64,000 bases of DNA from Candidatus Aminicenantes bacterium. GTDB taxonomy: Bacteria > Acidobacteriota > Aminicenantia > Aminicenantales > Aminicenantaceae. Numbering within the stretch: the stretch's first letter is position 1; the number at the start of each line of letters is the position of its first letter. Positions 12,155 to 13,866 of the stretch are shown piece by piece. The stretch spans positions 8,143 to 72,142 of the forward strand of contig JAWLEN010000002.1 of NCBI GenBank assembly GCA_041686095.1, given 5' to 3'. The position numbers and the translations under genes were made by a program. The notes under the pieces were generated by a model. The model was not told the origin of the DNA, did not search any database, and saw nothing but the letters and a program-made list of their open reading frames with translations.

Positions 12155-12229
12155 TGGTGGGCGATGCAGGATTTGAACCTGCGACTTCTACCGTGTGAAG
12201 GTAGCACTCTTCCGCTGAGTTAATCGCCC
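12155..12229 (-). tRNA. tRNA-Val (anticodon CAC), CCA encoded
   Basis: Hand-folded cloverleaf: GGGCGAT/ATCGCCC acceptor, ACTC/GAGT D stem, CTACC-TTCACAC-GGTAG anticodon arm, GCAGG-TTCAAAT-CCTGC T arm, discriminator A + CCA. 75 nt. Confidence 0.9.
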
Positions 12230-12240
12230 AGGTTCTATTA

Positions 12241-12268
12241 ATTTTAGATAAATCCGCTTGCTTGTCAA
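12241..12268 (-). promoter_or_regulatory. sigma70-like promoter candidate for tRNA-Val
   Basis: Minus strand TTGACA (12268-12263), 16 nt, TAAAAT (12246-12241). The tRNA 5' end lies 11 nt downstream. Confidence 0.5.
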
Positions 12269-12278
12269 TCCCTTTGAT

Positions 12279-12310
12279 GGGGACAGTTCTTTTTATATGG
12301 AACTGTCCCC
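12279..12310. other. perfect 11-bp hairpin downstream of trpB2
   Basis: GGGGACAGTTC (12279-12289), 10-nt loop, GAACTGTCCCC (12300-12310). No adjacent U tract on either strand. It lies between the trpB2 stop and the tRNA-Val promoter, so it may act as a terminator or insulator. Confidence 0.35.
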
Positions 12311-12328
12311 TGTGTTTGCCTGTGTTTC

Positions 12329-12365
12329 GGCGGTTCTCAAAAAAGGAGAACCGTCCCTGTTTTTT
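12329..12365 (+). terminator. hairpin plus T-run (terminator-like on the + strand; also just 3' of trpB2 on the - strand)
   Basis: GGCGGTTCTC (12329-12338) pairs with GAGAACCGTC (12346-12355), 10 bp including one G-U. TTTTTT at 12360-12365 lies 4 nt after the stem. Its 3' arm GAACCGTCCCTGT resembles that of the neighbouring hairpin (GAACTGTCCCCTGT). Confidence 0.3.
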
Positions 12366-12385: not shown

Positions 12386-13660
12386 TTATCGATCGTAAGC
12401 GTTGATGTCCAGAAATCCGTGTCCTGAAAGATTGAACAATATGACTCTTTGCTGGTCCTTTTCTCTGGCTTCTACGGCCTCATCAATGGCAGCGGCTACC
12501 GCGTGTGAGGATTCAGGTGCGGGAAGGATTCCTTCTGTTTTTAGGAACAATTTGGCAGAGTCAAATATTTTGGTCTGCTTGTAGGCTCTGGGTTCAATGA
12601 TTCCTTTTTTCGCCAGATGGCTCACCAGGGGAGCCATGCCGTGGTACCGCAGGCCTCCGGCATGAATAGGAGGCGGGATAAAATCCATGCCCAGAGTGTA
12701 CATGTAGAGAAGGGGAGTCATGCCCACGCTGTCCCCATGATCGTACTTCAAGTTTCCTTGAGTGAGAGTGGGGCAGACTTTGGGTTCGACAGCTATGAAT
12801 TTGATTTCTTTGCTTTCCAAAATCCGTTTTCTGACAAAAGGAAAAGCCAGTCCCGCATAATTGGAACCTCCACCCACACATCCGATAATCGTATCAGGTT
12901 CTGCTCCCAGTTCCTGCATCTGTTTGTCAGCTTCTTGTCCGATCACACTCTGGTGTATCATCACGCTGTCCAGAACAGATCCCAGAGAATATTTGGCTGT
13001 ATCGTCTTTGACAGCCATTTCCACAGCTTCGGAGATGGCGATTCCCAGGCTTCCTGGATGGTCCTTATCTTGAGCGAAAAATTTTCTTCCTGCTTCTGTC
13101 TGATCACTGGGGCTTTCCTGCACGTTCCCTCCGAACATTTCCATCATGATCCGCCGGCCTGGTTTTTGCCTAAAGCTGATTCGAACCATGAAGACTTTGA
13201 CTTCAAGGCCAAAAAGATTTCCGGCATGGGAAAGGGCTGATCCCCACTGACCTGCTCCGGTCTCAGTGGTCAAAGTCTCCACACCTTCTTGAGCCGCCAA
13301 ATAAGCCTGGGCAATAGCGGTATTGCTTTTGTGGCTTCCAGTGGGTCCCACTCCTTCATACTTGTAAAAAATATGAGCGGGTGTGTCCAGATGTTTTTTA
13401 AGCTCAGAAGCATAGACCAGAGGAGTCGGCCTGTACACGGCATAGGCTTCCTGAACTTTTTCTGGAATAGGGATGTATCTTTCCATTGAGCCTTCTTGCT
13501 GAATAAAGCCCATGGGGAATATCGGTGAAAGGTCCTCAGGTTTGAGAGGCTCTTTGGTTTGGGGGTTTAAGGGTGGTTTGGGCAGGTCCTTAAGGTCCGC
13601 CTTTATGTTATAGAATTTTTTGGGAAGAAATTGTTCTTTTCTGGATGCATATCTTTTCAT
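12386..13660 (-). CDS. trpB: TrpB2-type tryptophan synthase beta-like PLP enzyme, stand-alone
   Basis: [19 protein letters not shown]... N-terminal extension typical of TrpB2. PLP lysine motif [15 protein letters not shown], then [10 protein letters not shown] and GGGSNYAG. I prefer ATG 13660 (RBS AGGAG 7 nt upstream) to the TTG at 13666 in the track. Confidence 0.9.
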
Positions 13661-13718
13661 AATCAATCTCCTTTAATAGATCTTGAATCAATGGATTCAA
13701 TAAAGTTAAATTAAATGG

Positions 13719-13772
13719 AAAAAACAAAGGGGTTGGGTGGTGTTGGTTCTAGGCGGAAGGGCCCGCCCACCA
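13719..13772 (-). promoter_or_regulatory. GC-rich stem-loop + U tract in the trpB2 leader (candidate attenuator)
   Basis: Minus strand: GGUGG (13771-13767) pairs with CCACC (13740-13736). Inner GCGG (13766-13763) pairs with CCGC (13756-13753), loop GCCCUU. UUUGUUUUUU at 13728-13719 lies 7 nt after the outer stem. The 5' arm is formed by the two Trp codons of the leader ORF. Confidence 0.45.
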
Positions 13773-13829
13773 GAAAAGAACAGAGAAACTGTGTGATTTT
13801 TGATTTTTTTCAGTCTCTCTTTTAAACAT
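13749..13829 (-). CDS. candidate trp leader peptide (26 codons, tandem Trp)
   Basis: Own translation: ATG 13829 ... MFKRETEKNQKSHSFSVLFWWAGPSA, stop TAG 13751-13749. TGG TGG at 13772-13767. No Shine-Dalgarno. The ATG lies 8 nt after a consensus -10, so the mRNA would be leaderless or nearly so. Too short for the ORF track. Confidence 0.5.
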   Translation of the reverse strand: MFKRETEKNQKSHSFSVLFWWAGPSA

Positions 13830-13837
13830 AGAGAGAG

Positions 13838-13866
13838 ATTATAGAGATTGAACTTCAGCGTGTCAA
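13838..13866 (-). promoter_or_regulatory. consensus sigma70 promoter of the trpB2 leader
   Basis: Minus strand TTGACA (13866-13861), exactly 17 nt, TATAAT (13843-13838). Both hexamers are perfect consensus. Confidence 0.6.

Follow-up and report, generated by a model that had tools for sequence, protein, structure and literature searches.

A putative ribosome-read tryptophan leader upstream of trpB2 in Aminicenantes, shared with trpE operons

In a 64-kb stretch of a Candidatus Aminicenantes genome (contig JAWLEN010000002.1; hereafter the window, meaning the whole of the analyzed DNA), a stand-alone trpB2 gene is preceded by a short open reading frame (ORF) with two adjacent tryptophan codons embedded in a GC-rich hairpin. 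We propose that the element acts in cis on trpB2, sensing charged tRNA-Trp through a translating ribosome and controlling the gene by masking its ribosome-binding site (RBS), and that the same family of leaders also controls trpE operons of Aminicenantes; for this reading as a whole, we estimate a probability slightly above one half (roughly 0.55). That the element encodes a Trp-sensing leader peptide appears highly probable, because the mini-ORF is conserved among relatives, the same leader is found before trpE, and Chloroflexi orthologs of the gene carry a T-box. That the output consists mainly of RBS masking is nearly an even call for the family as a whole, and is less than an even call for the window's own clade.

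The leader is encoded on the minus strand, to which all coordinates given here refer unless stated otherwise. Its promoter, with the -35 hexamer TTGACA (13861..13866) and the -10 hexamer TATAAT (13838..13843) separated by 17 nt, scores 12/12 and is the top-scoring promoter in a scan of 3 kb for promoters and terminators; relatives also have a TTGACA-like -35 element. Between the -10 hexamer and the leader ATG, there is an 8-nt pyrimidine stretch, CTCTCTCT, and no Shine-Dalgarno (SD) sequence. Because the -10 box is located 8 nt before the ATG, its position implies a transcription start site that would make the mRNA leaderless or nearly so. The ORF consists of 26 codons and a stop codon (13749..13829; ATG at 13829, TAG at 13751-13749) and encodes the peptide MFKRETEKNQKSHSFSVLFWWAGPSA. 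Within the ORF, the minimum free energy (MFE) fold contains a 10-bp stem, P1 (13782..13820), formed by AGAGAGACUG (13820-13811) and CAGUUUCUCU (13791-13782). The 3' arm of P1 together with the linker GUUCUUUUC makes up a pyrimidine tract directly 5' of the Trp codons (13773..13791), which is the candidate anti-RBS strand. The tandem codons UGG UGG (13767..13772), the proposed stall site, are conserved in relatives, and both lie in the 5' strand of a second hairpin, P2 (13744..13772). The core of P2 consists of GGGCGG (13768-13763), the loop GCCCUU and CCGCCU (13756-13751); in the predicted fold, it is extended by an outer helix in which UGGU (13772-13769) pairs with ACCA (13747-13744), so that the stop UAG is partly in the stem and partly in a bulge. 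The stop is followed by a C-rich, G-poor, rut-like tract, AGAACCAACACCACCCAACCCC (13729..13748), and by the U run UUUGUUUUUU (13719..13728). Further downstream, a small predicted hairpin (UUGAAUC-CAUU-GAUUCAA, 13683..13700) directly precedes the SD; it is kept in the window's clade, and L006 has a different hairpin in this place. The trpB2 RBS (13658..13673) comprises the SD AAGGAG (13673-13668) and the ATG (13660-13658). The MFE of the whole leader is -37.7 kcal/mol, below that of shuffled sequences (z -2.3), and the window contains a single copy of the 21-nt Trp-hairpin motif, for which 0.03 copies would be expected by chance. A preliminary description of this DNA had listed the perfect promoter, the 26-codon ORF without an SD and its leaderless or nearly leaderless start, the adjacent TGG codons, and the U tract, all of which were recovered in our analysis. 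It had also recognized the hairpin that overlaps the Trp codons, but gave its outer pairing as GGUGG/CCACC, in place of which folding prefers UGGU/ACCA, and missed P1.

To define the conservation of the element, a TrpB2 protein scan with one genome per species was used, which yielded 80 loci; the nearest of these, at 87-90% identity, come from metagenome-assembled genomes (MAGs) of Aminicenantes. The comparison set consists of the 56 Aminicenantes-type loci in which TrpB2 is 65-90% identical to that of the window. The upstream regions of these loci are mostly unalignable, with the same anatomy throughout. An in-frame leader ORF, with a median length of 27 codons, is present in 54 of the 56 relatives. 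The W-containing mini-ORF seen in the window is conserved upstream of the orthologs, and the first ground for refutation named in the preliminary description, a lack of such conservation, does not apply. The two exceptions to the in-frame ATG leader are L015, which has a GTG start, and L011, a long-read assembly with a frameshift in a C-run. In L011, a one-base difference between the P1 arms, beside the C-run and ~144 nt upstream of trpB2, shifts the W codons out of frame; this is probably a homopolymer assembly error rather than a pseudo-leader, the leader of the sister locus L049 being in frame. A -10-like hexamer is located 5-10 nt ahead of the leader start in 44/56 relatives under a strict rule. 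In L012 and L014, ~19 nt separate the -10 box from the leader ATG, and the longer ORF, with FWSFWW, reaches 34-37 codons; thus, not every member of the family has the leaderless layout.

Trp codons are the conserved core of the leader. Each in-frame leader encodes two to four Trp, which accounts for 9.4% of the residues, and the codons are kept in all relatives as WW, WxW, WWW or WNWW, with the stop located 12-27 nt past the cluster; the C-terminus has the form [F/L/W]-W-W-A-x-x-x-A-(x)-stop. Some leaders contain extra in-frame W codons upstream (WxWW, WNWW, WLRAWWW). The near-identical leaders of L020 and L022 differ in the first tandem Trp codon, TGG in one and TGC in the other (GWWAG against GCWAG), a natural variant in which a single Trp codon is left beside the hairpin. 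At the RNA level, UGGUGGGCGG-N6-CCGCC is found exactly in 48 loci, with an invariant stem and a free loop. The P2 stem is fixed, but the residues that its loop encodes differ freely among leaders (G/V/D/A, P/F/L/S), which indicates that the constraint is on the RNA and not on the peptide. The P2 stem, GGGCGG/CCGCCC, shows no covariation within Aminicenantes despite full turnover of the surrounding leader. Equivalents of P1 with unrelated sequences are found in other clades (GGACAGC/GCUGUCC, AAGAAGC/GCUUCUU, GAGAGAGAAG/CUUCUCUCUC, GACGCGGA/UCCGCGUG), and the first and second halves of the ORF before the Trp codons form better duplexes than shuffled sequences do (mean z -1.48, p 7e-7). Given that it recurs in ~60 independent genomes, the feature is far beyond chance.

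The link to tryptophan extends past trpB2 itself. In a metagenome scan for the motif TCTGGTGGGCGG-N6-CCGCCC, at least 44 of the 120 matches listed are leaders before trpB2, and at least one, L199, precedes a trpE-trpGD-trpC operon; another match (L179) is leader-like, on a contig that ends before any downstream gene, and the remaining ones are chance occurrences inside unrelated genes, for example, those of PemK toxins and ABC ATPases. Genes for PemK/MazF-type toxins (L083, L093, L107, L116, L123, L145, L170 and others) encode an N-terminal IWWADLPAP, the DNA of which is the exact 24-nt leader motif, and are recurrent false positives in motif searches for the leader. Six homologs of the L199 TrpE were checked, and the leader was again detected before trpE in L201, L204 and L206, so that trpE-trpGD-trpC is preceded by it in four contigs. 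The trpE locus L204 and the trpB2 locus L028 belong to one MAG, GCA_026393895.1. Specific to Trp genes and shared between trpB2 and trpE, the element defines a small Trp regulon. At L205 (~1420-1445), a chorismate synthase (aroC) ORF ends in ...RRWAASRP-stop across a GGGCGG-CUU-CCCGCCC hairpin followed by AUAAAUAUUUUCC, with trpE 57 nt downstream; from its sequence, this aroC end looks like a remnant of the leader fused to the upstream gene.

Six loci of WOR-3 keep the same order of promoter, apparently leaderless ORF, WxW or WW, hairpin and stop. Their hairpin differs (GCAUGGGGG...CCCCCAUGC) and contains the stop within its loop, and the W codons are the only conserved leader residues common to both phyla. 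The putatively leaderless, W-rich mini-ORF (e.g., MLHFQHHTCLAWFWHGG) lies ~60-170 nt upstream of trpB2 in L053-L057 and L073; 6-30 nt before its W codons, these loci have a conserved box, ACCUnCCUU, that is complementary to their SD AAGGAGGU. In Chloroflexi, trpB2 orthologs are preceded by a T-box with a UGG specifier, at 2605-2901 of L062 (80 bits, E 1e-16) and 2654-2927 of L059 (65 bits, E 1e-12), both scores being below the Rfam gathering score of 93. Under the control of a Trp T-box, expression of this TrpB2 subfamily would be expected to rise when tRNA-Trp is uncharged.

Among the long-range pairings, only that of the pyrimidine tract and the first UGG with the downstream RBS exceeds the background. 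Across relatives, the 24 nt before WW contain 37% C, 37% U and 5% A. Taking the 34 nt before the W codons together with the W codons, the pairing with the RBS falls below the 5th percentile of 400 random windows of the same locus in 30% of the loci; for the 10th percentile, the share is 45% (binomial p ~1e-9, with the shared ancestry of the loci ignored in these statistics). The longest of these interactions to be noted here, in the trpE locus L204, is a 23-bp leader-RBS duplex of -31.3 kcal/mol that spans the SD, the spacer and the AUG. In L023, GUCGUGUCCUUCUGG pairs with CCAGGAGGAUAC...GAC over 15 bp; in L014, AUCCUUCUGGU pairs with AUCAGGAGGAU over 11 bp; CCUUUUCUGG pairs with CCAGAAAAGG in L030; CUGUCCU is placed against the unusual SD AGGACAG in L048; and L013 is also among the relatives with leader-RBS pairing. 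Differing RBS sequences are matched by differing leader sequences, and this is the case across two downstream genes. The SD itself has a median unpaired probability of 0.27 in the relatives vs 0.33 in 203 control genes (p 0.0035), and of 0.10 in the window's full leader. When the footprint of a stalled ribosome is masked in simulation, mean SD accessibility across the relatives rises from 0.26 to 0.34, with a gain above 0.2 in 13/54. Two other candidate routes from leader to gene were rejected. In one, the 5' arm of P1 would pair with the spacer as an SD mimic or anti-antisequestor, but no enrichment is seen (z -0.05; median percentile 0.56); in the other, a programmed frameshift at a hungry UGG would fuse the leader to trpB2, but both shifted frames stop before the gene.

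Judging from the sequence and its comparison with the relatives, transcription would start at the leader AUG or within a few nucleotides of it, and a ribosome would initiate there without an SD, translate 19 codons through P1 and reach UGG UGG in the 5' strand of P2. When Trp-tRNA is plentiful, the ribosome would pass these codons, stop at the UAG within P2 and leave, whereupon P1 and P2 would refold; the pyrimidine strand between P1 and P2 with the first UGG, and/or the U-rich spacer, would keep the trpB2 RBS paired, and little TrpB2 would be made. The untranslated C-rich, G-poor spacer may additionally let Rho terminate transcription. When Trp-tRNA is scarce, the ribosome would wait with UGG in the A site, and its ~30-nt footprint would cover the pyrimidine strand, which lies within the ~15 nt covered 5' of a ribosome in this position, as well as the 5' arm of P2. 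The RBS would be freed by the stalled ribosome and trpB2 translated. P2 would be nested directly beside the helix that closes between leader and RBS. By analogy, the best model for the element appears to be translational attenuation as in the leaderless cysteine short ORFs (sORFs) of mycobacteria, possibly reinforced by Rho acting on the C-rich spacer.

Several points weigh against RBS masking as the output. In the window, the anti-RBS duplex is weak, at -8.2 kcal/mol and a percentile of 0.42-0.47, not above background; UCUUUUC (13779-13773) could contact GAAAAGA (13658-13652, trpB2 codons 2-3), and a second candidate contact joins the U run to the RBS. Masking of the simulated stall footprint lifts SD accessibility in the window only from 0.10 to 0.19. 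RBS masking gives the nucleotide-invariant P2 stem no necessary role, and leaves unexplained the conserved C-rich tract and U run, which recur in the trpE leaders and lack complementarity to the RBS. P1 and the RBS would, in addition, be competing partners of a single pyrimidine strand. More generally, the transcription start site, leader translation, ribosome stalling and Trp response are deductions from sequence.

The spacer has the most bearing on the rival explanation that survives best, Rho-dependent attenuation, which we nevertheless consider unlikely. In this case, the C-rich, G-poor untranslated spacer would be a Rho loading site, with termination before or early in trpB2 unless the stalled ribosome disrupts it or translation of trpB2 starts; in a variant of this explanation, the spacer may act with the pyrimidine tract across P2, like rutA-boxB-rutB of lambda tR1. 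The composition of the spacer is as expected for such a site: the 45 nt after the stop contain 33% C and 2% G in the window, and a mean of 34% C and 11% G in the relatives, with 0-5% G in the AT-rich members including the window. In 44/56 relatives, a U run comes 15-25 nt past the stop, and the trpE leaders have it as well. Because both the trpB2 and the trpE leaders have the C-rich tract and the U run at a set distance from the stop, the spacer belongs to the core of the element, and it has no specific complementarity to anything tested, both of which are in line with a role for Rho. Seliverstov et al. (2005; PMC1262725) proposed the same for the mycobacterial cys leaders that lack terminators. 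However, a ribosome stalled at UGG leaves the C-rich tract uncovered, and melting of P2 exposes more C-rich RNA, which would bring more termination under starvation, opposite to the T-box logic of the orthologs. With the spacer left bare by the stalled ribosome, the sign of the response is wrong, unless Rho acts secondarily on untranslated message. Furthermore, no alternative structure that hides the C-rich tract was found, and the spacer is only 45-50 nt long in the shortest members. As a general anti-SD, the post-stop tract was rejected, given that its duplex energies equal those of mononucleotide shuffles and the genomic background (median percentile 0.52). In the predicted ensembles, the post-stop tract is an SD partner in 27/56 loci including the window, where the U run is the main predicted partner of the SD (P 0.86).

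Somewhat less probable still is that P2, the C-rich tract at a fixed distance and the U run jointly form a previously undescribed ribosome-gated platform of a phylum-wide Trp regulon, either a non-canonical or Rho-assisted terminator or a hairpin recognized by a trans-acting factor, which would act alongside RBS masking or in its place. A strand of such a terminator hairpin may consist of the sensed codons themselves.

Classical attenuation of the trpL type, as put forward in the preliminary description, appears improbable. Here, P2 extended by a distal CCACC-like box and followed by the U run would be the terminator, and a ribosome stalled on UGG UGG would occlude its 5' arm and permit readthrough. 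In the nearest relatives L001, L003-L005 and L036, a CCACC box is indeed located 1-3 nt before C-U-R-UUUUU, and C-rich sequence directly 5' of the U run is common in the family; the tail CCUGUUUUUU also follows a canonical hairpin elsewhere in the window (12329-12365, plus strand). An antiterminator is not logically needed if the ribosome itself blocks the stem. However, the terminator scan detected no intrinsic terminator in the leader, and the Rfam model Trp_leader (RF00513) has no match in it at the gathering threshold or at E up to 10; nor is there a match to the T-box (RF00230) in the window. When the 44 relatives with a U run were folded from the Trp codons through the U run, the best stem ended a median of 8 nt before the run, with only 10/44 within 3 nt, and the folding energy was no better than that of shuffled spacers (z +0.17). 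The stem-to-U-tract spacing, 7-15 nt in the window, was correctly described as non-canonical in the preliminary description. The compound stem of GGUGG with the CCACC box next to C-U-R-UUUUU is marginal in the window's clade (-11.2 kcal/mol vs an MFE of -13.6), and the window itself lacks it; in GC-rich clades, the U run is in a hairpin loop or missing. A non-stalled ribosome at the stop would, moreover, still cover the stem when RNA polymerase is at the U run, 18-25 nt further on. Complementarity tests revealed no antiterminator: neither the 3' arm of P2 nor the spacer has a partner, the 5' arm of P1 does not find one in the spacer, and no segment is complementary to the arm of the would-be terminator. 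The search for mutually exclusive folds suggested in the preliminary description likewise produced no antiterminator alternative, in agreement with the failure to identify a convincing one there. Of the proposed resemblance to trpL, the leader ORF that reads Trp codons is retained, and the terminator/antiterminator logic is not.

The least probable explanation, that the ORF is incidental to an untranslated structured RNA (a riboswitch, or a leader in which UGG contacts the anticodon or NCCA end of tRNA-Trp) or encodes a small hydrophobic protein with its own function, can draw on the conservation of P1 and P2, the nucleotide invariance of the P2 stem, as in ligand- or factor-binding RNAs, and the complementarity of UGG to the tRNA 3' CCA end, as used by T-boxes, but is very hard to reconcile with a start codon that, despite many indels and full sequence turnover of the P1 region, keeps both its place beside the -10 box and its frame relative to the W codons and the stop, with the accumulation of extra in-frame W codons upstream, with the lack of a match to any Rfam family or, for the small protein, with a peptide that is not conserved between clades outside the W residues, which makes a function of this kind unlikely.

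A Trp-sensing leader peptide with RBS masking as its proposed output can be compared with several known systems. The leaderless polycysteine sORFs of mycobacteria, in which the region of the stalled ribosome pairs with the RBS of the next gene, as demonstrated by compensatory mutagenesis, were described by Canestrari et al. (2020; bioRxiv 10.1101/834739). As in those sORFs, the first cistron would be a leaderless short ORF, and its regulatory codons lie close together toward the 3' end; one device serves several loci of a pathway (a 'ribulon') and does so without an intrinsic terminator; and the region that a stalled ribosome would cover is predicted to pair with the downstream RBS in many relatives, though not above background in the window. 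In contrast to the mycobacterial sORFs, the present leaders contain two to four UGG codons in place of a run of Cys codons and come from Aminicenantes and WOR-3 rather than Actinobacteria; the codons form part of a local GC hairpin with an invariant stem, P2, and pairing with the RBS would involve mainly the pyrimidine strand beside it; and the conserved C-rich/U-run spacer has no counterpart there. Given the differences in amino acid, phyla and local hairpin, the element would work like the mycobacterial Cys sORFs without being a member of that group.

The tandem-UGG short ORF upstream of trp genes, the hairpin beside the codons and the proposed sensing of charged tRNA-Trp by the position of the ribosome are features in common with trpL (RF00513) and the actinobacterial trp attenuators (Seliverstov et al. 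2005, PMC1262725). Unlike in trpL, the leader ORF has no SD, no terminator hairpin abuts the U tract, there is neither an antiterminator nor a match to the covariance model, and the only strong hairpin has the Trp codons in its 5' arm and the stop inside it or right after it. With ermC and cat, the element would share a ribosome that stalls in a short leader ORF, remodels the pairing and exposes a downstream SD; here, however, the stall would be caused by a hungry codon and not by a drug and the nascent peptide, nor did the analysis detect a four-segment relay, the 5' arm of P1 lacking complementarity to the spacer. The Trp T-box (RF00230), which controls the Chloroflexi trpB2 orthologs, responds to the same signal, uncharged vs charged tRNA-Trp, but binds the tRNA directly without translation, and is thus analogous and not homologous. 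The tnaC leader encodes an arrest peptide that senses free Trp and acts with Rho, inducing a catabolic operon at high Trp; it requires the W12-D16-P24 spacing and stalls at the stop codon. A short Trp-containing leader peptide and a stop followed by a C-rich untranslated region are present in tnaC-tnaA, too, but the genes downstream of the present leader are biosynthetic, and its peptide is not conserved apart from the W residues. Searches of the literature and of Rfam 15 found no description of a Trp leader upstream of trpB2 or in Aminicenantes.

The regulated gene, trpB2 (12386..13660, minus strand), encodes a TrpB-like pyridoxal phosphate enzyme of 424 aa (NF009057, 669 bits; TIGR01415, 621 bits). 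As noted in the preliminary description, it stands alone: tblastn detected no homologs of trpE, trpG, trpD or trpC anywhere in the window, and the genes flanking trpB2 are unrelated to it. Two GC-rich hairpins (12279-12365) are located between the trpB2 stop (12386) and a tRNA-Val gene; their U-rich tails (UGUGUUUG, CCUGUUUUUU) are on the plus strand only, and when read on the trpB2 strand, these hairpins have an A run before them and no U tract after. The tRNA-Val(CAC) gene (12155-12229, minus strand) has an 11/12 sigma-70-type promoter directly upstream (12241-12268, minus strand; TTGACA, 16 nt, TAAAAT), so the tRNA downstream of trpB2 has a promoter of its own.

If the proposed reading is correct, the element would be the first device for regulation at the RNA level to be described in WOR-3 and in the uncultured phylum Aminicenantes, and the principle of the leaderless sensory short ORF, demonstrated so far only for cysteine in mycobacteria, would extend to tryptophan and to distant phyla; this suggests that ribosome-read switches are widespread among unannotated short ORFs. 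The ~60 natural variants, which include leader-RBS pairs with compensatory changes, offer material for studying how stalling is converted into expression without a classical terminator. Because the leader is shared with trpE and the Chloroflexi orthologs are under a Trp T-box, the sequence comparisons suggest that the stand-alone TrpB2 belongs to the Trp-starvation response, and the same two observations would support the indole-salvage role that has been proposed for TrpB2 (as cited in PMC2700814).

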